64,000 bases of DNA from a virus. The translations under genes were made by a program, and so were the position numbers. Of this stretch, positions 15,427 to 46,517 are shown in pieces (position 1 is the first letter of the stretch; the number at the start of each line of letters is the position of its first letter). The DNA lies in IMG/VR virus record IMGVR_UViG_3300042934_001067, positions 1-64,000 of that record; one strand, given 5' to 3'. Under the pieces are notes generated by a model, which saw nothing but the letters and a program-made list of their open reading frames with translations, made no database searches and was not told the origin of the DNA.

Positions 15427-16134
15427 TCAGTAGTGGTCGTCCTCGTCGTGGTGACCGAGGTCCTCTTCGCCGATCACGGTGAAACCGTGCTTGGACCGGA
15501 CGTCGTCGTCGTTGTTGCCCCGGTGGTTTCCGTTGCCGTCATACTGCGGGTCCTTCTCGACCGGCCCGTTGGGATGGACCTCGTAGACGCGAGCCTGGCC
15601 GCCGTGGGTCATCGCGGCCTGGTCGGCGTAGTGCTCCGCGCTCGACCGGCTGGTGGCGTAGGCGTAGCCAGGCTCGTGGACGCCGAGGTTGTTGCCGAAG
15701 TTTCCCTTGGTCCCGTGGTTGGGGTGCACCTGCTCCAGGTCCTTGACTGTGGTGCCGTGCCAGTACCTCGGCGCGGGTTCGCCCTCGGGGTCGGATGCCT
15801 GGTCGTGGAGATGTACCGGCACCGGTCCGTGGCCCATGTTCTGCAACGCCTTCAGCAGGTGCGCATGGTGCAGGTGGTCCTCTGGATGTGTCTCCGAGCC
15901 GTCGGCGTGGTGGTAGATGTTCTCGCCGTGGTCGGTGATGTTCAGCCCGAGCTGGCCGTGCCGCTCCGGACTGTAGCCGTGCTGGCTGATCGAGTCGCTT
16001 AGCCTGCGGACGTGCTTGTCGTCCAGACGGTCGTACGCATGTCCCACATCCAGTTCCGAGGGGTCGATGTGCTCCTCGGAATCGATCGGCGCCCACTTAC
16101 CCAACTTGTTGATCTCCGACCAGACCAGCGTCAT
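15427..16134 (-). CDS. His-rich protein: degenerate ParB/Srx-like N-domain plus Arr-like ADP-ribosyltransferase
   Basis: YWHGT...YAYAT...RVYEVHPNGPVEKDP...GN...VRSK..FTVIGE matches the Arr (rifampin ART) pattern HGT..Y.T..RVY.VEP.G..E.DP..GN..RS..V.GE; 28 His in 235 aa. Confidence 0.75.
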   Translation of the reverse strand: MTLVWSEINKLGKWAPIDSEEHIDPSELDVGHAYDRLDDKHVRRLSDSISQHGYSPERHGQLGLNITDHGENIYHHADGSETHPEDHLHHAHLLKALQNMGHGPVPVHLHDQASDPEGEPAPRYWHGTTVKDLEQVHPNHGTKGNFGNNLGVHEPGYAYATSRSSAEHYADQAAMTHGGQARVYEVHPNGPVEKDPQYDGNGNHRGNNDDDVRSKHGFTVIGEEDLGHHDEDDHY

Positions 16135-16856
16135 CTGAACTCCTCACCGTGCAAGCGTACGTAGTTTCTCCACCCCTTGTCCGCCACGTAGACCCTCCCG
16201 GCCAGCAGGCCGTGCTTCTGCGCCGCCAGGGTCATGGACGTGTTCAGGAAGCTGCGCGGCTTCAGGCCGGGGTGCCGCCACCAGACACCGACGTTCCCCG
16301 GGTGGATGGCGCCAGGGCGCTTCCCAGGCCGCGTCCACGGCTGCTTCGCCTCACGCCACCCGATCCGGCCCGGAGCGCCCGGGTAGTGTGCCGGAGTGTC
16401 CGAGACGACGAGCTTCAGCCCGGTCTTCGGATCCCGTCGGTAGACCTTCTTCCGCTGCCCGATCTTCGCCGCGCGCCGGAAGATCAGCACCTGCACCTTG
16501 CCGGACTCCGTGACCCGGGTCTTCGCCTTCGGGTTGTCCCGCCGCTCCTGGCCCGTGGGGTCGTCGATCCACATCGGGATGGTCTTGCCAGCCAGGTTCT
16601 TCATGGTGAAGGCCTTCGTGCCGTGGTCCTGGTACCAGACCACCTGCGTCGCCCACGAGATCCCGAAGTAGCCCTTGCCGTAGAGCGGCTGCATTCCGCG
16701 CGCCGCCGCGCCGCTCATCTTCGGCATCCGTCGCCGGGCCTGCCGTACAGCCTCCCGGGCGGCGGCCTGGGCCCGCTTCGGGGACAGACCCTTCTCGATC
16801 ATGATCATCCGGTCGGGGGTGGCGACCAGGTGGACCTCGGGGACCTCGGCCTGCAC
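16131..16856 (-). CDS. Neck / tail-completion protein (HK97 gp10-like)
   Basis: Basic; RRMPKMSG, WYQDHGT and WRHPGLKPRSFL motifs. Confidence 0.65.
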   Translation of the reverse strand: MQAEVPEVHLVATPDRMIMIEKGLSPKRAQAAAREAVRQARRRMPKMSGAAARGMQPLYGKGYFGISWATQVVWYQDHGTKAFTMKNLAGKTIPMWIDDPTGQERRDNPKAKTRVTESGKVQVLIFRRAAKIGQRKKVYRRDPKTGLKLVVSDTPAHYPGAPGRIGWREAKQPWTRPGKRPGAIHPGNVGVWWRHPGLKPRSFLNTSMTLAAQKHGLLAGRVYVADKGWRNYVRLHGEEFR

Positions 16857-16871
16857 GCGCGCCTCCTCTGC

Positions 16872-16907
16872 TCACCCCTTGGAGGGCGACGGAGGAGGCG
16901 CGGACAG
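16872..16907 (-). promoter_or_regulatory. Late promoter motif 7
   Basis: CTGT-N23-AAGGGGTGA. Confidence 0.75.
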
Positions 16908-17670: not shown

Positions 17671-18336
17671 TCAGTCTTGCTCGTACAGCGGGATCAGCGG
17701 AGCGCGAATTACTTCAATGTCGTCGAACGACGGCGGCGTGTGCCCGGCCCGGGACAGGATCTCGATCAGCGGATCCGTGGCCGGGGGGATCAGGTACGCC
17801 ACCGAGTCTTCGTCCTCGACGGCCGCGCGCGCCAGGTTGTACGCCGTACCGGTCTCGCGCTGGTACGGCGTGCCGAAGCCGGTGCGCAGCGTGGTGCGCT
17901 GCGGCACGCGCAACTGCAGGCGCTCGCCGGTGGCGCGCATGGCGTAGTCGCCGCTGTGCACCCGGAAGTCGCTGGTGGTTTCCAGGTGGACTTCCTGTGG
18001 AGTGACGACGCCGCGCGCGGTGAAGCTCTGGCTGTCGTCGGCGTCGGTGAAGATGGCCGGGCGCACGATCAGGGCCCGGTAGCCGCCCTCGAAGCGGGTG
18101 CCGAAGCAGGAGGGGCACTTGTTCCGTGATGCCTGCCCGTAAGCCTTCGAGATGCGGTCGCTGGCGCACACCGTGCACAGGCCGACCAGCTGGTTCTCGT
18201 AGTCCTTCGCCGTCCAGAGCAGGCAGAACATGACGTTCTCGCCGAGCATGTGCAGCGCCTGGCTGTGCCTGAGCCGCTCCTGGTCGACGGCCCACGCCTG
18301 CTTCGAGCGGACGTACTCGCCCCGGACGGTGCTCAC
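17671..18336 (-). CDS. Head closure / neck protein with Zn finger
   Basis: CTVC...CPSCFGTRFEGGY; position after adaptor. Confidence 0.6.
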   Translation of the reverse strand: MSTVRGEYVRSKQAWAVDQERLRHSQALHMLGENVMFCLLWTAKDYENQLVGLCTVCASDRISKAYGQASRNKCPSCFGTRFEGGYRALIVRPAIFTDADDSQSFTARGVVTPQEVHLETTSDFRVHSGDYAMRATGERLQLRVPQRTTLRTGFGTPYQRETGTAYNLARAAVEDEDSVAYLIPPATDPLIEILSRAGHTPPSFDDIEVIRAPLIPLYEQD

Positions 18337-18893
18337 GGCGTCAGGTACCCGGCGGTGCGCAGGGAGGCCAGCAGCGTGTTGACGCCGGTCACGATCGCCG
18401 CTGCGTCGGCGTCGGCGGCGAGATCCGCGACGGCAGCCGCCTTCGGCAGCCGGTCGGCTGCGAAGGTGCCCGAGCCGACCTGCGAGGCTGGGAGGGAGGG
18501 GATCCGCGCGACGGCGAGCGTTCCTGAGCCGATCTGCGAGGCGGGCAGCGAGGGGATCCGTGCCGCCGCGAAGGTGCCCGAGGTGACGTCACCGGCCGCG
18601 TGCGTGTGCGTCGCCGCAGCGGCCCCCACGGCGGCGGCCGTGTGCGTGTGTCCCTCCGGCGCTGCATCGACATCCTCGGCGTCCAGGATGACGACGCCCG
18701 TCTGGGCGTTGACCGACTCCACTCCACCGCCGCCAGTCGGCGTCACCGAGGAGAAGAAGGCCACCAGGTTCGCCGACGGGATGACGGCGAACTGCTCGTC
18801 GGAGAGCGTGACTTCGTCACCGCCGTCGTAGATACCCCCGTTGGGCAGGGCGATCTGGGAGAGGCCCACCTTGAGGACCACTTTGTACGGCAT
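18333..18893 (-). CDS. Head fibre-like protein with 15-aa repeats
   Basis: VESVNAQTGVV, HTH repeats, tandem RIPSLPASQ(I/V)GSGT, C-terminal NTLLASLRTAGYL. Confidence 0.65.
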   Translation of the reverse strand: MPYKVVLKVGLSQIALPNGGIYDGGDEVTLSDEQFAVIPSANLVAFFSSVTPTGGGGVESVNAQTGVVILDAEDVDAAPEGHTHTAAAVGAAAATHTHAAGDVTSGTFAAARIPSLPASQIGSGTLAVARIPSLPASQVGSGTFAADRLPKAAAVADLAADADAAAIVTGVNTLLASLRTAGYLTP

Positions 18894-18903
18894 AAGTTAC
18901 CTC

Positions 18904-19779
18904 TTAGTAGAATCGGGTCAACCAGCGCGGCCGGGCCGCCTCGGACAGCGGCAGCCGCGTCGGGCCCCAGCGGCCGTACGCGCCGCCGGACACCAGCACC
19001 CGCGCGGTCCCGAGACCCATGTGCGAGATCTTGAAGACGTCGAGCTGCTGCTTCAGCACCGGCTCCTCGACCGCCAGAACCTCCTCCCACCGGTCCTTGT
19101 AGTCCCGGCGGTCCAGCCGCGAGACCCCCGAGCCGGACTGCACCTCCGGCTGCTCGACGTACGAGCGGACCAGGTGCCGCAGGCACTCCACGTACAGCGC
19201 CGACTCCAGCAGCGACCCCCACTTGGCCACCGGGAACGAGGCCCCGCCGTCACCGTCGATCGTGTAGGTCTGGTACGGCTGCGCCATCGTGTTCAGACGG
19301 CCCACAGCGATCCTGAGCAGCTGCGCGAGCCGGTTCCGGCCGAAGTTCGACTGGATGTAGGTCTGTAGGTGAGGGCCCTCGGTGGCGTAGTCGAACAGGT
19401 CGCTGAAGCGGTTCCAGGTGGTCTCGATGATCCCCTTCATCGGATCCGCCAGGACGTCGTACTCCGGCGCGGTCTTGCCGACCTCCAGCCAGACCCGCCA
19501 CTCCTCGTCCGACCCGCCCACCGCGTACGTCCACACCAGCACGTACGGGCCCGGAGTGGCCGTCTCCTTCGACGTCAGCCGCACCGAGTACTTCCCGGCC
19601 CCCGGATGGTCCGCAGCCCGCGAGAACACCTCTGTGGCCGCGTCGTCGTCATGCAGCAGCGCCACCATGACCGGCCCGTCCGCGTCCCCCGGCAGCCCCT
19701 GCCGCATGACCTGCAGCCCGAACTCCGCAGCCCCGTACCGTGAGACGTACGCCCGGTCCGTGTACTCGTCGGCCGCCAT
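18904..19779 (-). CDS. Head-tail adaptor-like virion protein
   Basis: Start MAADEY coupled to upstream stop (TGATG at 19779); position in neck cluster. Confidence 0.6.
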   Translation of the reverse strand: MAADEYTDRAYVSRYGAAEFGLQVMRQGLPGDADGPVMVALLHDDDAATEVFSRAADHPGAGKYSVRLTSKETATPGPYVLVWTYAVGGSDEEWRVWLEVGKTAPEYDVLADPMKGIIETTWNRFSDLFDYATEGPHLQTYIQSNFGRNRLAQLLRIAVGRLNTMAQPYQTYTIDGDGGASFPVAKWGSLLESALYVECLRHLVRSYVEQPEVQSGSGVSRLDRRDYKDRWEEVLAVEEPVLKQQLDVFKISHMGLGTARVLVSGGAYGRWGPTRLPLSEAARPRWLTRFY

Positions 19780-20462: not shown

Positions 20463-20497
20463 TCGCCCCTTGGCGGCCGATGACCGGGCACGAACAG
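20463..20497 (-). promoter_or_regulatory. Late promoter motif 8
   Basis: CTGT-N22-AAGGGGCGA. Confidence 0.7.
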
Positions 20498-22284: not shown

Positions 22285-22319
22285 TCACCCCTTGAGGAGG
22301 CCAGGTGCACCCCAGACAG
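22285..22319 (-). promoter_or_regulatory. Late promoter motif 9
   Basis: CTGT-N22-AAGGGGTGA. Confidence 0.75.
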
Positions 22320-22755: not shown

Positions 22756-23745
22756 CTACGACTTGTCGATCCGCGCGAGCCCGCGCGGGTTGAGGATGAG
22801 CATCGAGATCATCTCGTCGAAGACCCAGCCCTTCCAGAAGCTCTCGACCCGGTGGTTCTCTTCCACGTCGAGGCTGTACAGGACGGGGAAGACGCCCAGG
22901 AACTGCGGGTCCGGCGTCAGGAACGTCTGCCCCTGCGGGATGACGATGGACCGCTGGATCTGGAACTCGCCGAACGAGGTGATCGTCTCGCCCGCGACGA
23001 CCCTGTCCTTGAACGCCCAACCGGTCTGGTTGATGTCCCACCGGTACATGTCCCGGTAGTCCATCGGGTTGATGAGGATCCGGCTGGACTGCAGCTCGTG
23101 CATGTCGGTCATGGAGACCGCGCTGTAGAGCGAGCCCGGGGTCAGGTAGCCGGAGGCCTCGGTGATGACGTGGTTCGGGGTGACCGTGTGGTCGGCCCGG
23201 CCCGCGTAGTCGGAGATGGCGGCCTGCAGGATGGTGACGAGGCGGCTGTCCTCCTGCTTGAGGATGGCCTGCTTGGTCTCGTCCTGGGCCTGCTCGACGG
23301 CGTTGATCCGCAGGTAGAGCAGGTCTTCCTTGCGGATGGCCGGGCGGGAGGCGATGCGGAAGAACCGCACCTGGATCCGCTTGCCCTCGAAGGGGGTGAT
23401 GCGGACCTCGCCGTCGGTCCCGGACATGATGTACGCCTGCCCGAGGTCGTCCCAGACGTCGTACTCGACCGGCGTACCGGGAGTGCAGGGGTCCTCGACG
23501 AGGACGTTGCGGGTGATGCCCTGGTAGCGCAGCTTGAGCTGGATCGGGCCGATCATGCCGACGCCGAGGCGCTTGATGCCGTTGACCTGGTCGGAGGCGA
23601 CGGCCTGGAGGCGCTGCTGCTTGGCTTCGAAGGTCAGCGGCTGGCCGCCTCGGGCCTCGCGGCGGGCGAGGATCTCGGAGACGTAGTCGTCCGACTTCTT
23701 CGCGGTGACGCCGCCCTTGTGCCCGGTGGTGAGCGTTGCGGTCAT
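22756..23745 (-). CDS. Major capsid protein (HK97 fold)
   Basis: 329 aa after decoration gene; IGPIQLKLRYQGITRNVL, QAILKQEDSRL, GWVFDEMISMLILNPRGLA. Confidence 0.88.
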   Translation of the reverse strand: MTATLTTGHKGGVTAKKSDDYVSEILARREARGGQPLTFEAKQQRLQAVASDQVNGIKRLGVGMIGPIQLKLRYQGITRNVLVEDPCTPGTPVEYDVWDDLGQAYIMSGTDGEVRITPFEGKRIQVRFFRIASRPAIRKEDLLYLRINAVEQAQDETKQAILKQEDSRLVTILQAAISDYAGRADHTVTPNHVITEASGYLTPGSLYSAVSMTDMHELQSSRILINPMDYRDMYRWDINQTGWAFKDRVVAGETITSFGEFQIQRSIVIPQGQTFLTPDPQFLGVFPVLYSLDVEENHRVESFWKGWVFDEMISMLILNPRGLARIDKS

Positions 23746-23784: not shown

Positions 23785-24297
23785 TTAGCGCAGGCCGCCG
23801 ACGGTGATCTTGGAGGCGCTGTTGACCTTGAGCAGGCGGCCGACAGCCTGGGCGGAGATGGCGGTGGCGACAGAGCCGTTGGTGGCGAGGGCGAGCTTGC
23901 CCCGGCCGGTCCCGGCGGTGATCGCGTAGACGAGCTTCTCGGTGCCGTCGGCGGGGTCGACCCAGGCCTGGGTGTCGTCGAAGGCCGGGGCGAGGACCTC
24001 GAACTCAGCGTCGGCGCCGGGGACCCAGACGGCGGTGGCGTTGACGCCGACGTCCAGGAGCGGGTCGAAGCCGTCTCCGCCGACGTAGTCGGCCGCGAAA
24101 CCGTAGGGGACCTGGTTCGGGCCGATGAGGGTGACCAGCTCGCCGCTGGTGCGGGCGAGGACCATGCCCGGGTAGATCGGGACGCTGCGGTTCCAGGCCG
24201 GGTCGAGGAAGACGGACTTGGGAGTCGCCTGCGTCCACGCGTACAGCGGTCGCAGGGTCCTCTTGATGTGGGCAAGGTTGGCCCTCACGCGGATCAT
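23785..24297 (-). CDS. Capsid decoration / cement protein
   Basis: 170 aa directly upstream of MCP; IYPGMVL motif, beta-rich. Confidence 0.65.
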   Translation of the reverse strand: MIRVRANLAHIKRTLRPLYAWTQATPKSVFLDPAWNRSVPIYPGMVLARTSGELVTLIGPNQVPYGFAADYVGGDGFDPLLDVGVNATAVWVPGADAEFEVLAPAFDDTQAWVDPADGTEKLVYAITAGTGRGKLALATNGSVATAISAQAVGRLLKVNSASKITVGGLR

Positions 24298-24314: not shown

Positions 24315-25112
24315 ATGAATGGACGGTGTCGCTGTTCCCCGGACTGCACGGTTGAGTTCGGGAAGTGTCATTGCGGGTGCGGTAGATCCACCCGCATCGC
24401 TCCTCAAACGGCCACCGACAGAGGGTGGGTAAAAGGGGAGCCGATTCCCTTCTGCAAGGGGCATTCGGGGCGCGTACTCCGAAAGAAGCACGTGCTCAGC
24501 GAAATCGACCTGAGAAGCAGAGTCGCTACCTGTGAGGTGTGTGGCCCCACCGCGATCAAGAAGAACGGAACTGACCCGACCACTGGCGAGCAGCGATGGA
24601 AGTGCCACGGGGGGCTTTCCTCCATGCACCGCCTCTCCGAAGTCGACGAGGCCAACAGAACTGCTTGGTGCAGTGCGTGTCGAACCCGAGTCGCCTTCAA
24701 CAGGAGCGGGGCCCGAATCCTCTGCAACGTGGCTGCCAGGCGGCGTGACAGTGCCTACCGAGAGGCCAACAAGCAGAGAATCAAGGACGTCAGTGATGTG
24801 TGGCGCGAGGCCAACCGGGAGCGTCTCAGGGAGCAGTACCGGAAGCGCAAGTACGGACTCACCAATGCCGAGTTCGCGGCCCTCGTTGAAGAACAGGGCG
24901 GAGTCTGCGCAATCTGCGGCAGGCCGCCCTCCGGTGAGGGGCGCGAAAAGGAACTCCACATCGACCACTGCCACAGCAGCGGCGCTGTCAGAGGTCTTCT
25001 CTGCGAGCACTGCAACCGAGGCATAGGACTGTTCCGAGACGACCCGGAGATCCTGAAGAAGGCTGCCATCTACGTTGGTCGAGACCATCCTGTGGTGGCA
25101 CCTCCTTCCTGA
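24315..25112 (+). CDS. Endonuclease VII-family (HNH) free-standing homing endonuclease
   Basis: YGLT..EF...QGGVCAIC...LHIDHCHSSGAVRGLLCEHCNRGIGLFRDDPEIL; N-terminal CHCGCG and two repeated H.LSE.D...R.A.C..C units; lower GC. Confidence 0.88.
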   Translation: MNGRCRCSPDCTVEFGKCHCGCGRSTRIAPQTATDRGWVKGEPIPFCKGHSGRVLRKKHVLSEIDLRSRVATCEVCGPTAIKKNGTDPTTGEQRWKCHGGLSSMHRLSEVDEANRTAWCSACRTRVAFNRSGARILCNVAARRRDSAYREANKQRIKDVSDVWREANRERLREQYRKRKYGLTNAEFAALVEEQGGVCAICGRPPSGEGREKELHIDHCHSSGAVRGLLCEHCNRGIGLFRDDPEILKKAAIYVGRDHPVVAPPS

Positions 25113-33417: not shown

Positions 33418-33421
33418 CGAC

Positions 33422-33448: not shown

Positions 33449-33470
33449 ACTTCAACAGTTCGATGCTTTT

Positions 33471-33896
33471 TCAGACGACCAGCATACGCAGCGCCATCTG
33501 CATCTCGCCCGGCGTCAGCTCACCGCCCGCCGCGATCTTCTCCCGCAACTGCGCCTGCTCCCGCTCCTCGTCCGTCATCCCGTAGTACGGGTCCGGCCGG
33601 TGCTCGGCCAGCACCCGGCGCACCGCCGCCAGGTCGACCGACGACGGCGTGACGTAGAAGATGACCGGGTCCTGCGCGCTCACCGGCCCCGGCAGGCCGT
33701 CCTCGTCGATGGGAATGACAGCAGCCACCTGGACGGACGGACCGAGCGCCTCGGTCACCTCCACCTGCAGCTGGCCGACCGCGACCTCGCGGTTCCAGGT
33801 GAAACGGTGGCTGTCCCCCCGGAAGGGGTCCACCGGGTCGCCGCTGCCGTTCTCCTCCGGCGTCGGCTCCACGTCGTGCTTGTTCAGGCCAGCCAT
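33471..33896 (-). CDS. Hypothetical late protein
   Basis: 141 aa overlapping upstream gene end, GGAGG RBS. Confidence 0.65.
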   Translation of the reverse strand: MAGLNKHDVEPTPEENGSGDPVDPFRGDSHRFTWNREVAVGQLQVEVTEALGPSVQVAAVIPIDEDGLPGPVSAQDPVIFYVTPSSVDLAAVRRVLAEHRPDPYYGMTDEEREQAQLREKIAAGGELTPGEMQMALRMLVV

Positions 33897-36400: not shown

Positions 36401-36436
36401 TCACCCCTTGGCGGTGGCCGCGCACATGCCAGACAG
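36401..36436 (-). promoter_or_regulatory. Late promoter motif 14
   Basis: CTGT-N23-AAGGGGTGA. Confidence 0.7.
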
Positions 36437-36486: not shown

Positions 36487-37596
36487 CTACTTCTTGCGCA
36501 GACCGTTGGCGACCTCGAAGGCGTACTGCCAGGTCTTCGGGCCGGTGAGGCCGTCGGCCGGGCCGAGCGCCGAGAGGTAGTGCTTCTGCAGGGCCTTGAC
36601 CTTGTCGAGGTCCTTCTGCGTCATGGTGTTGGACGGGCCGACGGTGTACTTCGGGCCCCAGTCGCCCTCGTCGAGCCAGGTCTGCAGCTGGCGGGCGTGG
36701 GTGTTCTTCGCACCGAGCTTGAAGTACTGGCGGCCGGGGAACGCCGGGCACTTCGGCTTGGCCTTGGAGGGGAGCGAGCCCAGCAGGTTCTTCAGGCTAC
36801 CCTCGCCGGGCACGCCGTCGGCGGCCTTGCCGGTGTGGCCGAGGCTCTTCTGGTAGTCGGCGTAGTTCAGGGTGTCGGCGTCGGACCACTCGGGGCCGGG
36901 GCCCTCCTGGTAGTGCTTGCCGAAGCCGCGCTTGACGAGGGCCTTGCCGACGGCCGTGACGTGCGCGCCCTCGGCGCCGTAGCCGTACTCCAGGCCGCTG
37001 ATGGTGACCCGGTAACGGGCGGGCGTGGACGGCTTGCCGCCGTCGGTGGACGGCTTGTCCGTCGAGGGCTTCTCGGCGTCCTTGCCCGGCTCCTTCCAGC
37101 CCGGGTCGGCGGAGTCCATGGCGTGGTCGTACTTCGGGTAGCCGTAGCCGTACACGTACGAGTTGTCCCGGCGGTACGACTTCTCGTACACCCCGTCGCC
37201 CTCGGCCGACCCGGAGGTGTTCGTGTTGCCCTCGATTGTCCATATGTGAGTGGAGTTGTACCGGGTGACGAGGCCGGTGTGCGAGCCGCCGTTCTTCCCG
37301 AAGAAGACCTGCGCGCCGACGGCCGGGTACCAGGAGAACCGGCCCCACTGGCGGTAGGTGTTGACGGCGTTGATGCAGCTCGCCGTGACGGGGACGCGCT
37401 TGCGGTCGCCGTTCTTGTGGAAGCCCCAGACGACGAAGGTGCAGCACCACGCCATCCAGTCCGACCACTCCAGGGTCGGCGTCTCGTCGCTGTACTTCTG
37501 GTCGTTGTTCCAGTGGCCGCCTGACCGGCCCTCGTGGTAGCCCTTCTCACCGACGAGCGTCGCTATGACCTTGCTCGCCTTGACCTCGACAGGCAT
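36487..37596 (-). CDS. Endolysin (CHAP domain plus peptidoglycan-binding domains)
   Basis: AWCCTFV...SHTGLV...TIEGNT (CHAP); YQKSLG...ADGVPG and ADGLTGPKTW (PG-binding). Confidence 0.9.
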   Translation of the reverse strand: MPVEVKASKVIATLVGEKGYHEGRSGGHWNNDQKYSDETPTLEWSDWMAWCCTFVVWGFHKNGDRKRVPVTASCINAVNTYRQWGRFSWYPAVGAQVFFGKNGGSHTGLVTRYNSTHIWTIEGNTNTSGSAEGDGVYEKSYRRDNSYVYGYGYPKYDHAMDSADPGWKEPGKDAEKPSTDKPSTDGGKPSTPARYRVTISGLEYGYGAEGAHVTAVGKALVKRGFGKHYQEGPGPEWSDADTLNYADYQKSLGHTGKAADGVPGEGSLKNLLGSLPSKAKPKCPAFPGRQYFKLGAKNTHARQLQTWLDEGDWGPKYTVGPSNTMTQKDLDKVKALQKHYLSALGPADGLTGPKTWQYAFEVANGLRKK

Positions 37597-37622
37597 CTGG
37601 CCCTCCCCAGGGATCGGTTTTC

Positions 37623-37658
37623 TCACCCCTTGGGGAGGGCCCAGACGCTGTGCAACAG
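37623..37658 (-). promoter_or_regulatory. Late promoter motif 15 (endolysin)
   Basis: CTGT-N23-AAGGGGTGA. Confidence 0.7.
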
Positions 37659-37664
37659 GAGAGG

Positions 37665-39506
37665 TCAGGCCGCCAGCTGGGTGACCGGGGCATACGCGCG
37701 CACCGGCGCCGTGGTGTCGCCGGTCGCCACCATCACGTTGGTCCCCACGCTCAGCGCGCCGCCGCCGTCGTCGTTGATGCCCGCCTGTGCGGCGTGCAGG
37801 TAGCAGTCGCCGATCTGGACCACGGAGGCCCCGGCGACGGAGACCCCGTACTGCGGAGAAGAGACACCAACGCCGTCGTCGTCCACGCCCGGGTAGCAGC
37901 TGACGGCAGAGGCGATGACGGGCATGGTGGCGCCCGCGACGGCCAAGCCCGCGTAGCCGCCGCCGCCGGAGCCACCGTTGCGGCCGTCACGGCGCGTCAT
38001 GAGGTTGGTGATGGTGATCGGCGCGTTGCCGGTGGCGTCGATGAGGACGCCGTGGCCGCCGTTGCGGTCGGTCGAACAGGCCGCCATCTGCAGGCCGCCG
38101 GAGCCGGTGCCGTTGCCCCAGGCGCCCGTCAGGGTGTAGCCGTGGCTGCCGTTCCACTCGGACCGGCAGGCCACGATCTGGCTGTTGGCGATGTTGCTGA
38201 GGACGTAACCCTGCCCCCAGCAGCCGATGACCTGGCAGTCGAGCATCGTCAGGTCCGTCATCCGGGTCAGCAGCGCGCCGTTGGCCCGGCAGTTGTCGAT
38301 CATGACGTTGGTCATGCGCCACGAGTACGGGAAGACGTTGTCCCGGCCGCCGGTGACGATGCCGTTGTTCGACATGCGGCGGATCGTCACGTCGGACATC
38401 CGGACGTTCTGAATGTTGCCCTCGGCGTAGATCCCGTCGACCGGCTTGGTGCCGTCCAGCACAGAGCCGTCCAGCATCAGGCTCTCGATACGGTGCTCGG
38501 CGGACAGCGCCGGGTAGCCCCCGGTCACCTGGTCCCGCAGGATCATCAGCGCGTTGCCCGTGAAGGACGGCAGCGGCACGATGCGGCACTGAGGGTCGGT
38601 CAGGTCCTCCGCGCTCATCATGTCCGCGCGAGGCCCGCGCACCGTGATCCCCGGCTTGGGCGTGATGGTGGCGGAGACGGCGTACACGCCCTCGGGGAGG
38701 TACACCGTGCCGCCGACCGGGCACGCCTCGATCGCCTCGGTGATGGCGAAGTAGTCGTCCGTGACGCCGTCCGCCTTCGCCCCGTACAGGGGGTCCTGGA
38801 CGTTGAGCCAGCCGAACACGGACTGGCTGAGCTGGCCCACGGTCGCTGCGTCCGTCGGCTGCACGCCCGGGGCGAGGTTGACGAAGCGCTGGGCGCCTGC
38901 GTCCACAGCGGCCGTCGGCTTGAACAGCTGATGCAGCGCGGGCATGGCGTGCACGTGCCGGGCGTCGGCCGCCTTGCCGCTGGCACCGGCCGCCCGGGTG
39001 CCCAGCGCCTGGATGTCCGTGTCATCGCCGCTGATCGGCGTGGTGCCCCCACCGCCACCCGAGCCGATGTCGGCAGGCAGATGCTCGTAGGGGACACGGC
39101 CGGAGCCGTCCAGGCCCGCGTAGCCGTTGGGCAGGTTCCGCTGATTGACCGGCTGGAAGAACACGCCGGGCGCGACCGCCTCGGCCAGCCGGGGCACGGT
39201 GGCCAGATCGACCGGACCGGCATCGAAGGGCACCGCGATGAAGTACGTCTCGGTCGCCAGGCCCGACAGGGTCTCCGTCACCTCGTACGTGCCGCCTCCC
39301 ACGGGCAGCGTGTCCGGGTCGTTGGTGGCGGGGACGGTCAGCGAGATCGCCCCTTGGGCGTCCAGCGTCGCGGTGTACGGCTTGCGGTCGGCCGTCTCGC
39401 CGCCGTTGAACAGCACACCGACGAGCTGCAGACGGACCGTCCCGGTACGGGGCAGGTCCGCGTCGTCGAGGTAGGTCCGCGTGACCGGGACCAGGGTGAA
39501 CGTCAT
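37665..39506 (-). CDS. Tailspike / depolymerase with right-handed beta-helix
   Basis: NVQDPLYGAKADGVTDD...GTVYLPEGVY (pectate-lyase-3-like start) and N/G-rich beta-helix repeats. Confidence 0.85.
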   Translation of the reverse strand: MTFTLVPVTRTYLDDADLPRTGTVRLQLVGVLFNGGETADRKPYTATLDAQGAISLTVPATNDPDTLPVGGGTYEVTETLSGLATETYFIAVPFDAGPVDLATVPRLAEAVAPGVFFQPVNQRNLPNGYAGLDGSGRVPYEHLPADIGSGGGGGTTPISGDDTDIQALGTRAAGASGKAADARHVHAMPALHQLFKPTAAVDAGAQRFVNLAPGVQPTDAATVGQLSQSVFGWLNVQDPLYGAKADGVTDDYFAITEAIEACPVGGTVYLPEGVYAVSATITPKPGITVRGPRADMMSAEDLTDPQCRIVPLPSFTGNALMILRDQVTGGYPALSAEHRIESLMLDGSVLDGTKPVDGIYAEGNIQNVRMSDVTIRRMSNNGIVTGGRDNVFPYSWRMTNVMIDNCRANGALLTRMTDLTMLDCQVIGCWGQGYVLSNIANSQIVACRSEWNGSHGYTLTGAWGNGTGSGGLQMAACSTDRNGGHGVLIDATGNAPITITNLMTRRDGRNGGSGGGGYAGLAVAGATMPVIASAVSCYPGVDDDGVGVSSPQYGVSVAGASVVQIGDCYLHAAQAGINDDGGGALSVGTNVMVATGDTTAPVRAYAPVTQLAA

Positions 39507-41662
39507 ACCTGCAGCTCCTCGTTGATCGTGTCCTCCTTGAGGTGACGGCGCATGCCGAGGTGACGCGGCCCCTGGTAGAGGCCGACGGCCTCCTTGCGCT
39601 GGATCGCCACCGGGATCTCCTCGACGTCGGTCGCGGCAGGCACCAGGACCTTCGGCTTGTGCACGTTGGCCAGCGACCGGATCCGCTCGTGGTTCTGGAA
39701 CAGCTGCGTCGGCTCGTTCGGCGCGGGCCGCTGGGCGTACGGCGACAGCGAGGACTGCTTGGGCATGTCCCCGCGCTGCTCGTCGGACTCCGGCGGCCGG
39801 GAGCCCTGGTCGGCGTCGACCGGCTCCGGCACGCTGCCCGGCTCGACGACACCGCCGTCGGCCGGGGTGGTCTGCAGGTCCTGCATCGTCGGCGCGATCG
39901 TCGGCTGAGAGGTGACCGGGTCCATGCCCAGCAGCGGAATCCGCAGCGGCGCGGTCGGCACCTGGTTCGGGTCCTGGGCCTCCGGCAGCGCGCGCGCCTC
40001 GAAGTCCTTCTTCAGGTCGTCCGGGATCGGCAGGCCCTTGTCCCTGAGGGCGACGTAGATGGCCTTGCGTGTCTCCTGCTCCTGGACCGCCAGTTCGACG
40101 GCCTCCTCGCGCGACTTCTCGATCTCGTCGTCGAAGTCGATCGACACGTTGTGCAGCCGCGTCTTCATCGAGATCGGCACCCCGGCCTCGCGCAGCGCCT
40201 CGAAGAACTCGTTCTGCGCGGCCTCGTCCTGCAGCGACATGGTCCGGAACTTCAGGTCCGGAATGAGCAGCTTGGGCTGCTCGACGATCCGGCCCTCGCC
40301 CGACTCTTCGTCGATCTCGTAGACCTCCTCCATCTTCACGTACCGCTTGCCGCCGCGCTCCTCGTAGTCGAAGTGCTCCTGCGCCTCGGCGACGACCAGC
40401 GCCCGCTCCCGGTAGTGGGCGGCCACCATGTCCTGGTAGTTCGTCAGCATCTGCGTGACCAGGTCGCGGTTGAGGGCGTCGGCCGCGTACGTCTCACCCG
40501 AGGACGCACCGGCGAGCATCGTCTTGGACAGGCCGAACGTCTGCAGGACCCGGCCCTCGATCCGTTCGAAGTCGGGGCTGAGGTCGGGGATGTCCTCCTT
40601 GCCCAGCACGGACTCCATCTCGACCGCGAAGTGCGTCATGATGATCCGGAAGTCACCCGCGAGGGCCGCGTCCACCGCCTCCTCGAAGTCCGCGAGGTCG
40701 TCCAGCGTCGGAATCCACGGCACCTGCGTGCCCAGGTCCGACGCCGACGCGCCGAGCTTGGCGTGGATCAGCGGCGTGTACAGGCGGTCCGCAATCGAGT
40801 CGACGGCCGCATTCAACATTTCTTCCTGCATGAGCGAACGCATCGCCCTATACAGGAGCGGAACGCCCCGCTTGTTGAATGTGTCGGCCTCGAATTTCAT
40901 CTGCCGCAACAGAATGTTCGACACCGGCATCAGCGCATTGTCGTCGGCGTAATACGTCAGCTCCGGGTACGCCTCGACGAGCTTCTCGTACTCCCAGGCG
41001 GGCTGCCGGGTGCGGATCAGCTCCCGCATCGTCTGCGGCAGCCGGATCAGGAACCGGGGCTCGCGCAGGAACGGCGACGGCTGCACCTCGACGTCGTCGG
41101 GATTCAGCAGCTCCTCGTCGTCCCATACGCCCAGGTCCTCGTTGAACGTGCCCAGTGGCCACGCCTCGCCGACCGTCCAGTACTCCCGGCCCAGGTCGAT
41201 GAGGAACTTCCGGTAGTCCAGGCCGTCCTTCGAGAGGAAATGGTCGGTGTAGAACTCCGTGAGCCGCTCGTCCTTGCATGACATCTTGAGCCCGAGCAGC
41301 GGGTATTTCGAGTAAATGTCGACGCATGATCCGACGATCGGATGGCTGATGTACAGCAGGCGGCAGTACGCCCGCATCTTCGCCATCTGCGCCGGGTCGT
41401 CGAACTGAAACGGGAGATTGTTCTGCCTCCAATAAAAAAGCGGATCCCGGGGCCGCACCGTCGCGAACGACACCGACGGATTCGAGCCCACCCCGCCCCC
41501 GCCACCGGCCGCCACCTTCCGGGTGACCCGGCGGTTCTTCCGCATCTCGGACTCCTCGCCCGACTCCCCGGGGCTGGAGGAGAAGCGCCGGAACAACCGG
41601 TCGATCCGGGACTGCTCGGCGTCGAAGTTCTTCGGCTGCTCCGGGCGGGGCTTCTGGGCCAT
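39503..41662 (-). CDS. Portal protein
   Basis: 719 aa; YISHPIVGSCVDIYSKYP, EYWTVGEAW, RGVPLLYRAMRSL, IADRLYTPLIHAKLG. Confidence 0.85.
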   Translation of the reverse strand: MAQKPRPEQPKNFDAEQSRIDRLFRRFSSSPGESGEESEMRKNRRVTRKVAAGGGGGVGSNPSVSFATVRPRDPLFYWRQNNLPFQFDDPAQMAKMRAYCRLLYISHPIVGSCVDIYSKYPLLGLKMSCKDERLTEFYTDHFLSKDGLDYRKFLIDLGREYWTVGEAWPLGTFNEDLGVWDDEELLNPDDVEVQPSPFLREPRFLIRLPQTMRELIRTRQPAWEYEKLVEAYPELTYYADDNALMPVSNILLRQMKFEADTFNKRGVPLLYRAMRSLMQEEMLNAAVDSIADRLYTPLIHAKLGASASDLGTQVPWIPTLDDLADFEEAVDAALAGDFRIIMTHFAVEMESVLGKEDIPDLSPDFERIEGRVLQTFGLSKTMLAGASSGETYAADALNRDLVTQMLTNYQDMVAAHYRERALVVAEAQEHFDYEERGGKRYVKMEEVYEIDEESGEGRIVEQPKLLIPDLKFRTMSLQDEAAQNEFFEALREAGVPISMKTRLHNVSIDFDDEIEKSREEAVELAVQEQETRKAIYVALRDKGLPIPDDLKKDFEARALPEAQDPNQVPTAPLRIPLLGMDPVTSQPTIAPTMQDLQTTPADGGVVEPGSVPEPVDADQGSRPPESDEQRGDMPKQSSLSPYAQRPAPNEPTQLFQNHERIRSLANVHKPKVLVPAATDVEEIPVAIQRKEAVGLYQGPRHLGMRRHLKEDTINEELQV

Positions 41663-41680: not shown

Positions 41681-41715
41681 TCACCCCTTGGGCCCGGGGA
41701 AGCCGCCACAGACAG
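41681..41715 (-). promoter_or_regulatory. Late promoter motif 16 (portal)
   Basis: CTGT-N22-AAGGGGTGA. Confidence 0.75.
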
Positions 41716-43127: not shown

Positions 43128-44300
43128 CTACTCGAACAGGCTCGCGCCGTGCTGGAAGTGGGTCGGGATGTTCCAGTCCCGCCGCTCGGGCGAGGTGTGG
43201 GCGGGCTCGGCGTGGGAGAAGCCGTGCCCGGCCGGGTCGGTCGGCAGCGGCGCCTGGCCGGTGCCGTGGCCGGTGTCGGCGTGGGAGAACCCGGAGGGCA
43301 CCGGCGGCCGGTAGTGCTCGGAGGCGCCCGGCCCGGCCAGGTTCGCGTCCCACTTCTCGCTCATCTCGCCCCTTGCCTTGTCGAAGCCGGACAGCAGGTC
43401 GTCCGACGCGTGCTGGGTGGTGTACTCGGGGGACGCGCCCGGAGCGGCGGCGTTCGCGTCCCACTTCTTGTCCATCTCGTGCTTCGCGTCGTCGAAGCCG
43501 TGGAGCAGCTCGTGCGACGCTGCCGGGGGCTCCGGGTGCGTCGCGGGCGCGAAGGTGCTCGGGGCCGCGTCGGGTCCGTGCCGCCACCAGTCCTTCAGGC
43601 GCTGGTAGAAGCCCGCCACGGTGGGCTCCAGCGACGCCGTGGCGGTCGTGGCCGCCGCCGGGTTCGTCCGCCCCTCCAGGTCGTCCAGACGCCGGTTGAC
43701 CTCGTCGAAGGTGCCCGTGCCACCAGCGGCGCCCGGGTCAGCCGCCGGACGTCCTGCACTCTCGGGAAGCGCCTTCGGCATCCCGCCCGGCCTCCAGTGC
43801 TTGGCCCGGTCCGTGATCGGGCCGTCGGCCGCGCCGCCCCACGACTCGTACGCCAGCGGATAGGCATCCGCGTGCTTGCGCACGGCCTCGGTGGCCAGCT
43901 TCAGGCAGGTGGCCATCGGCACGCTGGGGTTCTCCCGGGCGGCCGTCGCCGCCAGATGCGCCACGGCCGCGTCCATGCCCCGCTCCTGAGCGGCCGTCAC
44001 CGCCCGTCGCGCGGCCGTCTTCTGCGCGGCCTCCTTCTTCGCGGTGGACAGCAGCTGCCAGCGGCGGGTCAGGTCGGCGGTCAGCTCGGCGACCGGGTAG
44101 CCACGCAGGCTGGCCACCGCCTGCAGCTGGGACTCGGCCAGCGCCAGACGGTTGGCCAGGTCGATGTCGTTGGCCGCCAGGTAGACGAACTGGCCTACCA
44201 GGCGCTCGGTGTCGGCCAGCGCGGCCGTACGGGCCAGCTCGCGCCGTTCCGCGTTGAGGTCGGCGCTTGCGCCGTCCCACATCAGGTCGGAAGTGTCCAT
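43128..44300 (-). CDS. Internal-head protein with tandem repeat
   Basis: 390 aa; RTA/KTA/VTA motifs; duplicated LLxGFDxAxxEMxxKWDANxAxPGAS. Confidence 0.65.
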   Translation of the reverse strand: MDTSDLMWDGASADLNAERRELARTAALADTERLVGQFVYLAANDIDLANRLALAESQLQAVASLRGYPVAELTADLTRRWQLLSTAKKEAAQKTAARRAVTAAQERGMDAAVAHLAATAARENPSVPMATCLKLATEAVRKHADAYPLAYESWGGAADGPITDRAKHWRPGGMPKALPESAGRPAADPGAAGGTGTFDEVNRRLDDLEGRTNPAAATTATASLEPTVAGFYQRLKDWWRHGPDAAPSTFAPATHPEPPAASHELLHGFDDAKHEMDKKWDANAAAPGASPEYTTQHASDDLLSGFDKARGEMSEKWDANLAGPGASEHYRPPVPSGFSHADTGHGTGQAPLPTDPAGHGFSHAEPAHTSPERRDWNIPTHFQHGASLFE

Positions 44301-44303
44301 GGG

Positions 44304-46517
44304 TCAGGCGCCCTTCTTCTCTTCGAGCAGGCCCGCCTGCACGCGGCGGCGGAACGCGGACGCCGTCGGCGAGAGGCCGGAGCCGGTGTTGGTCGCGGAC
44401 GCCATGCCGGTGTCGGGGATGGTCACCGGCGTGCCCTGCGGGACGGACGGCGCGGGCGGCACGACCGGCTGCCCGAACGGCTCGGCCCCGTTGTAGGGGG
44501 CGGCACCGGCGGGGGCCGCCGCGTTCTGCTGGCCGTCGAGCGGGCCGGGACGGCCGGGGCCGTTGATCGGGGTGTCACCGGTCGGCGACGGCGACGTGGA
44601 CGGGTTCGTCGTGTCCAGGTCGATGCCGGTGGCGGCCTCGACGCGCAGGTACGTCCCGTCCGTCGGCAGGACCTGGGCGGCGGCGACCTTGTGGGTCAGC
44701 TCCCGGTGCCGGGTGATCCGCTCGCCCAGGCCCGGCTCCACTTCAGCCAGCGAGGCGTGCACGGACAGCCACGCCAGCCGCTGGCTGGGCAGGTCGGTGA
44801 GCGCCGCGTAGATCCCGGCCTCCAGCTCCGGCGAGCCCGGCCGCACGACCGGCACGCCCGGCTTCCAGCGGGCCGCGTACTTGTAGCCGCGCTGGAAGTC
44901 CGGGTGGGCCATCTCCTGCTTCGAGGCGACCTTCCGGGACGCGAACGCCGGGTGCATCCGGCCGGTGCCGTTGTCGCCGCCCATCGACACCGGCACGTTC
45001 TGCGCGGGCGCGGACGGCGCCGCGTTGGTGTAGGACTGGGTGTAGGCGGGAGCGGCGTGGGCGTCACCGAAGGACGGCGCAGCGTCCGGGTTGGCGGCAT
45101 CCGCCGCGCCGCTCCCGGCCTCCTGGACGTTGCGCGGCGGCGTGGTCGCCGGGGAGTTCGCGATGTTCGGCTGCGGGAACTGGTGGGGCTGGGTCCACTG
45201 GTCGGCCTGCACCCGCCGCGAGGCGTGCGCCTGGTGGCCGCCGGAGACCTCCCCGCCCTGGTCGTAGTGGGCCTGGCCGGTCATGCCGTCGGCCTGCTCG
45301 CCCTCGTCGAGGAGCCACGGGAACGCCACGGTGGTCGGAAGCGGCGTCGTGTGCGCCTGGTTGTTGACGTCGGTGGTCTGCTGGACCTGCTGCAGCCCGG
45401 ACGCGGCCTCCTTCTTCCGGCCGGGGAACGCCGGGCCCGCCTGCTGGGTCTGCTCGGTCTCCTCCTGCGCGGGCTCGGCCTCCGGCTGCTGGGCAGGACC
45501 GCCCTGGACCGGGATGTCGGCGTAGTCGGAGTGCCCGCCCGCCCGTTCCGGCGTGGAGTTCCCCCCGGCCGGGCCCTCACCGGCGAGCGAGGAGCCGCCC
45601 TCACCCCCGCCGCCGCTTCCGCCCAGCGACGGCTCCGCGCCCGGGCCGGTCATGTTCCCGGTCTCCGAGTGCCCGCCGGGCACCTCGGGGCTGGAGTTCC
45701 CGCCGCCGTTGACGGCCTGCTGGATCGCCGGGGCCCGGCTGGAGGTCTCCGTCCCGACGACGCCCTCGTTCATGTCGTTGACCGGCGGCGCGAAGTTGTC
45801 GAAGACGTCCGGAGGCAGCGGCGTCGCCTTCTCCGTCACCCCGTCCGGGGCCGTGGTCTGCTGGATCTGGTCCAGCCCGGACGCCGCCTCGTGCACGACC
45901 GCCCGGGACCGCAGGAACGCCGCGTAGTCCACGAACACCGACTCCGCCGTGGCAGCCTGCGTGCCCAGGCTCGCCGCGACGTGCCGCGCCATGCCCTTGG
46001 CCTGCTCGGTGAACTCCTGCTCGTCCCGCACGACGTTCTCCGGCACGTTGCCGTACCACAGGGCGGCCTGCGCGACCATGCGGCCGTGGTCGAACTCGTC
46101 GTCGGCGACCTCGCTCCCCAGCCAGTCCGACTCGGTCGTCCCGCGCGCGGTCCGGGAGATGACCGGCGTCATCGCCTCCCGGATCGCGGTGTCGGCCAGG
46201 TCCGCCTCACGGTCCAGGGCGGCGGTCCGCTGGGCAGCCCGGTCGAGGTCGTCGAGCTGCTTGACGAGCTGCAGCTGCTCGTCGAACGTGGCGGCGCTCT
46301 CGATCCGCTTCAGCAGCTCGGAGCGTTGGGTGCTGGGCGACATGCTGTTCTCCTCCTGCGCGCCCGCGCGGCGCATCCGGCGGCGTACGGACTTGTCTTC
46401 GCGGGAGGGGTTGCGGCGCGCACCACGCACAGCAGGACGCATCGGCTCACGAACGGACTCGTCATCGGTCCACAGGTCGTCCAGCGCATCCCGGTCTGTG
46501 TCGTACACGCGAATCAC
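44304..46517 (-). CDS. Large internal-head / core protein (second in-frame start at 46343)
   Basis: Low-complexity 737 aa; repeated EAASGLxQxQQTT units; strong GGAGGAG RBS before MSPSTQR. Confidence 0.65.
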   Translation of the reverse strand: MIRVYDTDRDALDDLWTDDESVREPMRPAVRGARRNPSREDKSVRRRMRRAGAQEENSMSPSTQRSELLKRIESAATFDEQLQLVKQLDDLDRAAQRTAALDREADLADTAIREAMTPVISRTARGTTESDWLGSEVADDEFDHGRMVAQAALWYGNVPENVVRDEQEFTEQAKGMARHVAASLGTQAATAESVFVDYAAFLRSRAVVHEAASGLDQIQQTTAPDGVTEKATPLPPDVFDNFAPPVNDMNEGVVGTETSSRAPAIQQAVNGGGNSSPEVPGGHSETGNMTGPGAEPSLGGSGGGGEGGSSLAGEGPAGGNSTPERAGGHSDYADIPVQGGPAQQPEAEPAQEETEQTQQAGPAFPGRKKEAASGLQQVQQTTDVNNQAHTTPLPTTVAFPWLLDEGEQADGMTGQAHYDQGGEVSGGHQAHASRRVQADQWTQPHQFPQPNIANSPATTPPRNVQEAGSGAADAANPDAAPSFGDAHAAPAYTQSYTNAAPSAPAQNVPVSMGGDNGTGRMHPAFASRKVASKQEMAHPDFQRGYKYAARWKPGVPVVRPGSPELEAGIYAALTDLPSQRLAWLSVHASLAEVEPGLGERITRHRELTHKVAAAQVLPTDGTYLRVEAATGIDLDTTNPSTSPSPTGDTPINGPGRPGPLDGQQNAAAPAGAAPYNGAEPFGQPVVPPAPSVPQGTPVTIPDTGMASATNTGSGLSPTASAFRRRVQAGLLEEKKGA

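Follow-up and report, generated by a model that had tools for sequence, protein, structure and literature searches.

Two polyproteins encoded in the head-gene module of a Streptomyces phage, the prohead-protease fusion P0002 and the SWIM-finger protein P0004, are very probably carriers of interchangeable cassettes of the polyvalent-protein type. Their genes lie between positions 15427 and 46517 of a 64-kb window, which comprises positions 1 to 64,000, i.e. the first 64 kb, of the single 156,276-bp contig of the IMG/VR record IMGVR_UViG_3300042934_001067; positions are those of the window unless stated otherwise. The contig has a GC content of 69%. The major capsid protein (MCP) shares 74–75% nucleotide identity with those of Bixzunavirus (I3, Cali and Bxz1) and Rhodococcus phage E3, and the protease shares about 42% amino acid identity with its Cluster C mycobacteriophage and E3 counterparts (megablast/tblastn), so that the phage is, as judged from these identities, a Cluster C-like Streptomyces myovirus that is only distant kin of the Cluster C mycobacteriophages. 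As the high GC content yields many spurious open reading frames (ORFs), genes were called by third-position GC content (GC3). The real genes of the window lie almost throughout on the minus strand, and the ORFs proposed in an earlier note on this DNA were found at the coordinates claimed there, every one on the minus strand and with a GC3 of 0.88–0.96. The two carriers and their parts are as follows.

26205–29423, minus strand: P0002, prohead-protease fusion polyprotein of 1072 amino acids (aa), the first carrier (matches to phrog_18299, phrog_2774 and DUF7178; syntenic with I3 gp103)
28740–29423, minus strand: protease domain, aa 1–228, present in all orthologues, with invariant H78 (VNH) and S136 (TSMG)
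28252–28445, minus strand: small cassette of 65 aa, phrog_3666-like, not in sibling MH60
27171–28026, minus strand: DUF7178 cassette, HhH-GPD glycosylase-like, aa ~467–752, 7.3% His (indel relative to MH60, AlphaFold2 (AF2) model, VIA fold search)
26208–27167, minus strand: conserved C-terminal Zn-ribbon, Pro/Asp-rich region, aa 753–1072, 0 His, in all orthologues and I3 gp103
33884–36004, minus strand: P0004, SWIM-finger head-module protein, the second carrier (phrog_2940/30974)
35051–35458, minus strand: SWIM zinc-finger-like backbone segment (CGCKW...CSH), the sole part kept in Cluster C, Gordonia and Rhodococcus phages
34370–34909, minus strand: cassette resembling ADP-ribosyltransferases (ART-like), aa 388–567, 11.1% His (missing exactly from orthologues of 480–540 aa; AF2 model; fold searches)

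The exchange of cassettes is seen among sibling phages, which are represented by contigs of 150–160 kb from Streptomyces and Kitasatospora assemblies bearing many orthologues of P0002, P0004 and the free-standing ParB-like/Arr-type protein P0001. The closest sibling, from Streptomyces sp. MH60 (MCP 100% identical, 93–95% nucleotide identity), is without 27171–28026, the DUF7178 cassette (an indel of 856 nucleotides, 285 codons), and without 28252–28445, the 65-aa module, both clean and in frame, which establishes a presence/absence polymorphism. The protease fusions span 610–1717 aa and have in common the domain 1–228 and the C-terminal region 753–1072, the middle being occupied by DUF7178, NUDIX, GNAT, ParB or almost nothing. 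As the C-terminal region is kept even in orthologues without DUF7178, it may be a capsid-targeting or scaffold-like anchor. The orthologues of P0004 span 460–1262 aa, and some of them contain two copies of the ART-like module, others GNAT, NUDIX or Arr, while residues 388–566 are exactly missing from those of 480–540 aa. The module occurs at a second site, near residues 140–205, in P0105, P0107 and P0117, and a third insertion site of the family follows LAP[AS]TA. Compared with I3, P0002 and P0004 are conserved at their backbone ends alone, the I3 middles holding LysM and L5_gp82 domains. The inserts had been called swappable in the earlier note, and this is borne out by the in-frame presence or absence and by the GNAT, NUDIX and Arr replacements.

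Prohead proteases of the assemblin/HK97 type are Ser/His proteases that co-assemble in the procapsid, often with a scaffold-like C-terminal part. The N-terminus of P0002 matches phrog_2774 (E 3e-62), and residues 56–203 are similar to the head maturation proteases of phrog_18299 (E 8.7e-23). The domain contains the invariant residues H78, H83, H96 and S136, and it has no sequence match in PDB, Pfam or NCBIfam. PDB sequence searches with P0002, P0004 and a protease profile were set aside, as they returned only artefacts (an acidic tract against sigma-70 and a His-tag). The order protease, putative scaffold, cement protein, MCP parallels I3 gp103–gp105, thus placing the putative protease upstream of scaffold and MCP.

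The modules are identified at the level of fold and motif. Residues 473–752 of P0002 (AEA/AKP...SHVA, where the slash here and below marks a junction) comprise 280 aa with 21 His, exactly the count given for the glycosylase-like domain of the earlier note, and residues 494–703 match Pfam DUF7178 with 113.7 bits (gathering cut-off 27). The AF2 model of the module (predicted local distance difference test, pLDDT, 92.1; predicted TM-score, pTM, 0.90) has the two-lobed all-helical HhH-GPD fold, its best VIA match being Thermotoga OGG Tm1821 (Z 10.3, root-mean-square deviation (rmsd) 3.9, 179 residues aligned). VIA ranks 1–22 are all HhH-GPD enzymes, whereafter Z falls to about 4, and the matches comprise MagIII, QNG1, AGOG, OGG1, NTHL1, EndoIII, AlkA and MutY, thus nucleoside glycosylases (QNG1) besides DNA glycosylases. 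The HhH-GPD motif consists of a catalytic Lys in the bifunctional type and a catalytic Asp some 20–35 residues further on; K605 (LKGPK605TADF) and D641 (VVID641RH) of DUF7178 are invariant in 24 orthologues, with a spacing exceeding that of EndoIII. No sequence similarity to solved glycosylases was detectable in the PDB sequence search. The assignment of DUF7178 as HhH-GPD glycosylase-like is well supported at the fold level by the model, with catalytic-type Lys and Asp retained.

P0004 starts in the database with GTG at 36004 (706 aa, this form being P0054), its ORF being open to 36070, and residues are numbered here as in the longest ORF of 728 aa. The SWIM segment and the C-terminus are common to I3 gp102 and E3 gp76. 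Between them, residues 393–567 (VNA/SWD...QHTA) form a module of 175 aa with 20 His, again as counted earlier. An exhaustive HMMER search yielded 214 cluster representatives of this module, mostly in proteins of 1000–3700 aa that may contain as many as five or six of them, besides stand-alone forms of 167–201 aa; the carriers also hold NUDIX, Arr/ART-PolyVal, GNAT and 2H phosphoesterase domains. None of the 39 aligned members matches any Pfam family. In the alignment, the motifs HRG, GxHW[S/T] and xxE[V/I]P, with the invariant residues R36, G76, E143 and P145, stand in the order of the R-S-E clade and on the predicted strands, the correspondence being one of motif order and strand and not of superposition on toxin active sites. 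With the AF2 model (pLDDT 88.5, pTM 0.83), nearly all best matches in Foldseek and, independently, VIA are ADP-ribosyltransferases, as the earlier note had supposed, e.g. pertussis S1 (VIA Z 5.6, rmsd 4.1, 109 residues aligned) and the Rhs ART TreX (5.4), with Tpt1, scabin, LT, CARDS, PltA, Arr, PARPs and DarT also among the matches. The scores of both aligners are modest (Foldseek E 0.1–1, TM about 0.3), and the module is thus only probably an ART fold of R-S-E type. In BFVD, Gordonia phages also have the ART-like fold, and Cluster C phages have it as a fusion with ParB.

A further ART of the region is encoded as a free-standing protein.

15427–16134, minus strand: P0001, ParB/Srx-like N-domain and Arr-type ART, 235 aa (Pfam Arr-ms, 30.1 bits)

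The match of P0001 to Pfam Arr-ms (PF12120) covers residues 124–223 and exceeds the gathering cut-off of 25 bits; the sequence match to PDB Arr reaches E 0.5 only. Residues H126 (YWHGT), Y159 (AYAT) and D195 (EKDP), which would, to judge from the alignment with PDB Arr, correspond to the H-Y-D catalytic residues of Arr-ms, are invariant in 19 homologues. P0001 has 47 homologues on contigs of about 150–160 kb, with conserved His columns, whereas no match turned up when 50,697 phage records were searched by tblastn. The 28 His in 235 aa noted earlier for a free-standing ART were recounted exactly and amount to 11.9%, the maximum of the genome (proteome mean 2.64%). The start codon overlaps the stop codon of an upstream 241-aa gene (ATGA; 16131–16137), which suggests translational coupling. 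As P0001 has an extra ParB/Srx-like N-domain and a phage context, a macromolecular target may be at least as likely as rifamycin. P0001 is not the insert module of P0004, with which it has no similarity, nor is it the Arr module of the P0004 orthologues P0124 and P0169, with which it shares only about 28% identity; the latter are therefore different cassettes of one superfamily. Position does not suffice to make P0001 a virion protein, as ThyX sits in the same region.

The cassettes of both carriers are bracketed by junctions of a common type. The DUF7178 cassette is bounded by QPPRAA/ALQAEAAKPQ and NNSHVA/RLAD, with QPPHTA/SLID as the empty site in MH60; the small module by RQATA/STSYEH and GSRTTA/SLPVGSPFC, with LQTTA/NGDLPVGSPFC in MH60; and the ART-like module by LRTVNA/SWDS and LQHTA/NANAPFGEP, with the single site of short P0004 forms reading IRPLA/NAN, V-TA/SVD, IQPVA/SVS or MRMTA/EVA. 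Each of the three cassettes is thus flanked by [T/V/N/A]-A followed by [S/N/R/A], and the empty site corresponds to one copy. All six cassette ends and the three empty sites end in Ala preceded by T, V, N or A, and the codons vary (ACG GCC, ACC GCC, GTC GCC, AAC GCC). Three of the four ends of the large cassettes fall where the models show coil or have low confidence (pLDDT 54–64 at the left ART junction; both DUF7178 ends). A similar junction is found in the MCP, whose residues 1–15 (23701–23745, minus strand) form a variable leader ending in GGVTA, followed by the invariant KKSDDYV. In seven phages (this one and six relatives), a variable leader of 14–16 aa directly precedes the invariant K[KA]SDDYV, with the junctions GGVTA/KK, GGATS/KK, GRVA/KK and PRTA/KK, and GRFA/KA in I3, a pattern as would be expected of a propeptide cut off by the prohead protease. 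The junctions of cassettes and MCP leaders end in Ala, rarely Ser and never Glu, and so do not fit the Glu sites of T4 gp21 and phiKZ gp175; by analogy, they are probable protease sites with Ala at P1. Herpesvirus assemblin cuts after Ala, at (V/L/I)-x-A/S, a pattern fitted by the left ART junction TVNA/S. However, assemblin precursors carry scaffold and not enzymes, and the P0002 protease lacks a sequence match to solved proteases.

The earlier note had proposed x-[TVEN]-A as a motif recurring in five late head proteins and falling at domain boundaries. As a statistical entity this motif does not hold, since the five proteins contain 103 instances of it where their composition would predict 96 (observed/expected 1.07; per-protein shuffle p 0.14–0.79), and the ratio in the remaining 35,057 residues of the proteome is 0.97; it was thus rejected as a proteome-level feature. 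With 11.5% Ala and 23% T+V+E+N, a [TVEN]A dipeptide is expected every ~33–38 residues. The 13 tripeptides listed in the note have an apparent 2.6-fold excess, which is circular, the five proteins themselves having supplied the list. Neither H[TV]A genome-wide (18 against 15.8 expected) nor [TVN]A[SNKR] outside the head set (123 against 120) is enriched, and for the latter P0004 alone stands out (7 against 2.4, p 0.011 uncorrected). The part concerning domain boundaries survives in so far as the indels end at the Ala-ending junctions VNA, HTA, HVA and TTA, most of the other listed sites being at chance. An automated test of junctions in bulk, for which 640 insertions were taken from alignments, was dropped as support, as the global aligner split modules internally and the result was noisy.

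These observations can be assembled into a mechanism in which two head-module polyproteins would carry interchangeable cassettes from the polyvalent-protein module pool, the first consisting of an N-terminal prohead protease, a variable middle and a conserved Zn-ribbon C-terminal region, and the second being the SWIM-finger protein. The prohead protease would cut at [T/V/N]-A before S/N/R/K, placing Ala at P1 in the manner of herpesvirus assemblin, and the same kind of site would release the MCP leader of about 15 aa. The freed modules would be too large to exit the shell, stay in the capsid, be ejected with the DNA and act early on the host. The full sequence of carriage, cleavage at the junctions, packaging and ejection is on balance favoured, with much room for doubt. 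Several points weigh against it. The broad and the narrowed motifs are without proteome enrichment; in the bulk test, left ends fell at such sites in 130 of 640 insertions (95 ± 9 at random) and right ends in 89 of 640, the latter without enrichment. HTA forms the last three residues of the final β-strand of the ART-like module and is conserved family-wide, including stand-alone proteins, so that its conservation may be structural, and distant DUF7178 orthologues end without Ala (NIHVR, NMHLR, NLHAR). The fold Z-scores of the ART-like module are modest (below 6), and the family assignment of the putative protease derives from its PHROG match and position. The same modules also occur outside head modules, the head fusion being one deployment among several. 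The literature search returned no experimental data showing that proteins of this phage or its Cluster C relatives are cleaved in this way, reside in the virion or are injected, and nothing relevant on Cluster C virion proteomes, MCP N-terminal data, DUF7178 or His-rich virion proteins.

Some of these points would also fit cassettes that are swappable but uncut, the junctions being flexible linkers or scars of illegitimate recombination in an Ala/Thr-rich, high-GC proteome and the chains acting or being degraded whole. This is rather unlikely, though [TVEN]A occurs about once per 33 residues with no motif version enriched, HTA is explained as the end of the last strand, indels are common across the late region of the siblings, and polyvalent proteins of the N4 vRNAP type are packaged unprocessed (PMC5512222). 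It is opposed by the nine junctions and empty sites, all of which end in Ala despite differing codons, indicating a constraint at the protein level, by the MCP leader, which has no relation to the cassettes and yet ends alike in seven phages, and by the fact that the maturation protease is itself a carrier. A role of the modules in the producer cell or in the capsid, on the phage's own DNA or proteins and not as injected effectors, is improbable. Packaged DNA could be policed or processed by the glycosylase-like module, and the contents of the capsid could be a target of the ART, as HhH-GPD enzymes act on DNA, the module sits on a protease resident in the prohead where DNA enters, QNG1 and PUGT among the DUF7178 fold matches act on modified nucleosides or bases, and ThyX and other nucleotide-metabolism genes are interspersed in the region. 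However, the modules are dispensable and replaceable between near-identical phages, which would not be expected of a core function in DNA processing; DUF7178 is absent from several orthologues whose head module is intact, and ART, GNAT, NUDIX, 2H and ParB constitute the repertoire of host-directed conflict effectors (PMC5512222).

The content of His bears on a related question. The several-fold enrichment noted earlier stands, as computed over the proteome: 7.3–11.9% in the modules against a mean of 2.64%. Within P0002, the DUF7178 module contains 7.3% His, the protease domain 3.1% and the last 320 aa 0.0%; within P0004, the insert contains 11.1% and the flanks 1.9–3.8%. Head backbones have 0–3.8% and insert-less orthologues 2.0–2.1%, with 2.6–3.1% in I3 gp102/gp103 and 7.3% in I3 gp88, a ParB protein of the type that bears the ART-like fold in sibling Cluster C phages. 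That this richness is a packaging or ejection signature of proteins that are to enter the capsid and pass through the tail is quite unlikely. All proteins of the genome with at least 200 aa and at least 6.3% His are effector-type multi-module proteins, 108 giant carriers of at least 800 aa have a median of 7.2% His (6.5% with the ART-like modules masked) and 0.7% Cys, and virion packaging of such proteins has been predicted by Iyer et al. (PMC5512222). However, the low values of the protease domain, of the P0002 C-terminal region, of the MCP, of the insert-less forms and of I3 gp102/gp103 speak otherwise, since prohead-resident proteins or regions that are not His-rich indicate that His is not needed for head residence. 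The His residues moreover occupy conserved positions (12, 18 and 24 columns with at least 50% His in the alignments of families A2, A3 and A1, respectively), which fits a role in structure, metal binding or catalysis. The pool of His-rich modules adjoins DNA polymerase III alpha, RecA and UDG in other phage-like contigs. The claim that His enrichment marks head cargo accordingly finds no support: the same modules are encoded at 104–108 kb of the genome and beside replication genes, and prohead proteins are His-poor. His-richness is a conserved hallmark of the entire module pool and not a head-targeting signal. A wider 'cargo grammar' of actinophages, in which His-rich (~7%), low-Cys cassettes between the Ala/Ser or Ala/Asn sites of two carriers are cut free and ejected and the histidines serve packaging or ejection, is likewise doubtful; conserved surface His would there permit the proteins to condense, in dependence on metal or pH, inside a capsid filled with DNA, or to unfold reversibly on their way through the tail. 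A literature search on the His-richness of such proteins found no paper.

Beyond the window, the region 104474–108639 of the genome (minus strand) encodes a protein with ParB_N and 2H/LigT phosphoesterase domains (647 aa, 7.9% His) and a GNAT-GNAT protein (741 aa, 6.3% His), the modules of which are 40–70% identical to segments of giant carriers of the ART-like module. The loci L017 (10001–23994) and L018 (5979–13028) of other phage-like contigs are dedicated to ART-like, Arr, GNAT, 2H and NUDIX modules in proteins of up to 3000 aa, and lie downstream of a conserved gene of about 710 aa, near DNA polymerase III alpha (with an intein), RecA and UDG and outside a head module.

Phages packing multi-domain effectors, notably ARTs, in the head for injection have been published (PMC5512222, PMC9503650). 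The polyvalent proteins of Iyer, Burroughs, Anand, de Souza and Aravind (2017; PMC5512222) are predicted to be packaged in virions and injected, have a repertoire of ART, GNAT, NUDIX, ParB, 2H and peptidase domains, and stand in a context of phage virion genes, occasionally with an assemblin-like peptidase fusion. The proteins described here resemble them in having two or more domains in one chain (protease, small module, Zn ribbon and DUF7178/HhH-GPD in P0002; SWIM and ART-like in P0004, to which orthologues add GNAT, NUDIX, ParB and Arr) and in the shared repertoire, the ART-like module occurring 1–5 times in such proteins of 1000–3700 aa, beside NUDIX, Arr/ART-PolyVal, GNAT and 2H. Packaging would here be in line with gene position, the prohead-protease fusion and the late-type leader motif. 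Assemblin-like peptidases are reported to lie at the C-terminus throughout in PMC5512222, whereas the protease is here N-terminal and the putative morphogenetic protease of the phage itself; the ARTs described there are of the H-Y-D type, whereas the ART-like module is R-S-E-like and matches no Pfam family. Glycosylases are not mentioned in that work, nor are bracketing junctions or His-richness described.

In T4, the ART Alt is packaged in the head and injected with the DNA, and in T4, phiKZ and SPN3US the prohead protease trims cargo proteins at short motifs during maturation (PMC9026906, PMC10052503). Their cargo proteins have genes of their own, bear targeting sequences and are cleaved behind Glu (L/I-x-E; S/A/G-x-E), unlike the candidate cargo described here, which is built into the protease polyprotein and into a second carrier and has Ala-ending candidate sites. 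In the MuF/portal fusions, variable toxin or enzyme domains are carried in the capsid on a conserved head protein (PMC9503650); those effectors are C-terminal add-ons, whereas the cassettes here are inserted internally, with three or more sites in P0004 and a place between two conserved ends in P0002. DUF7178 resembles OGG2, AGOG, MagIII and EndoIII in its modelled fold and in having Lys and Asp in the expected motifs, and the C-terminal half of P0001 matches Arr-ms with H-Y-D retained, but both differ from known HhH-GPD and Arr enzymes in containing 3–4 times more His and in being embedded in or associated with virion genes. The points of difference are thus the putative morphogenetic protease as a carrier, the second, SWIM-type carrier, the Ala-ending bracketing junctions found also at the MCP leader, the R-S-E-like ART module without a Pfam family, the HhH-GPD glycosylase-like candidate cargo and the class-wide excess of His.

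The remaining genes of the head module considered here are the following.

22756–23745, minus strand: MCP (phrog_2522, E 2e-105)
23785–24297, minus strand: cement (decoration) protein (Pfam Phage_cement_3, E 1e-28)
25242–26141, minus strand: P0003, putative scaffold, from its position between the protease and cement/MCP genes and its coiled-coil-like N-terminus
39503–41662, minus strand: portal protein (phrog_2833, E 7e-136)
43128–44300, minus strand: P0005, 390 aa, low-complexity, upstream of the portal gene
44304–46517, minus strand: P0006, 737 aa, low-complexity, upstream of the portal gene, with a late-type leader motif at 46529–46560

Read towards lower coordinates, the genes follow one another as P0006, P0005, portal, a pectate-lyase-like tail protein, endolysin, a 98-aa gene, P0004, a plus-strand insert, P0002, the putative scaffold, the cement protein, MCP, several genes of unknown function together with ThyX, P0001 and the tail sheath, which matches the order in phage I3 (portal gp96, gp102, gp103, gp104 and MCP gp105). 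P0003, P0005 and P0006 gave no family match in the Pfam, NCBIfam and PHROG scans, and for P0005 and P0006 no I3 counterpart was found. Of the five late head proteins proposed in the earlier note, the protease fusion and the SWIM protein are upheld by synteny with I3 gp103 and gp102 between portal and MCP, and the scaffold is suggested by position; P0005 and P0006 would be placed in the head by position alone, which leaves that location unproven. P0006 is collinear in four siblings and among these is thus no cassette carrier.

Several further elements interrupt or vary this region. A plus-strand gene block (29823–33450) stands between P0004 and the gene of the protease, breaking up the head module of the minus strand, and the product of 31565–32848 within it matches DUF6545. 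A homing-endonuclease gene of the endonuclease VII type (24315–25112, plus strand; phrog_2914, E 6e-38) is placed in antisense orientation between the gene of the putative scaffold and that of the cement protein, and the entire stretch of about 0.8 kb is missing in the closest sibling. In place of 36760–37764 (tail-spike region) and 18335–18941 (tail/neck region), the MH60 sibling has about 3 kb of unrelated DNA, which is mosaicism of the host-range type. The siblings are contigs of 150–158 kb within Streptomyces and Kitasatospora assemblies (L003–L005, L008), one of them deposited as 'plasmid pRLB1-9.1', which points to a carrier state, to pseudolysogeny or to life as a phage-plasmid.

The element CTGT-N20–24-AAGGGG occurs in 11 copies in the window, against 0.39 expected, and is a candidate class of late promoters or leaders, as judged from its sequence and placement. 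The minus-strand copies are located as follows.

1517–1548, minus strand: CTGT-N20–24-AAGGGG
15388–15419, minus strand: CTGT-N20–24-AAGGGG
16875–16907, minus strand: CTGT-N20–24-AAGGGG
20466–20497, minus strand: CTGT-N20–24-AAGGGG
22288–22319, minus strand: CTGT-N20–24-AAGGGG
36404–36436, minus strand: CTGT-N20–24-AAGGGG
37626–37658, minus strand: CTGT-N20–24-AAGGGG
41684–41715, minus strand: CTGT-N20–24-AAGGGG
46529–46560, minus strand: CTGT-N20–24-AAGGGG

Copies on this strand precede the portal gene, the endolysin gene, the unit of the 98-aa gene and P0004, the unit of P0006 and P0005, and the 241-aa gene whose stop codon overlaps the start of P0001. No copy stands immediately upstream of the protease or MCP genes. 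The placement of this candidate element is consistent with co-expression of P0004 and P0001 with virion genes.

Injected phage proteins and the way in which they are loaded into the head are known for few model phages only. DUF7178 gains an assignment at the fold level as HhH-GPD glycosylase-like, a probable ART-like family of more than 200 protein clusters, absent from Pfam, is defined, and a threefold excess of His is documented over more than 100 polyvalent-type proteins. If the histidines did serve packaging or ejection of cassettes cut free from the two carriers, injected proteins would be predictable from their sequence, by His content together with the junction motif. The sibling phages constitute a natural experiment, in which near-identical phages differ by single cassettes within the polyprotein of the putative maturation protease, so that the loading and processing of the cassettes and the benefit they may provide as effectors are directly testable.

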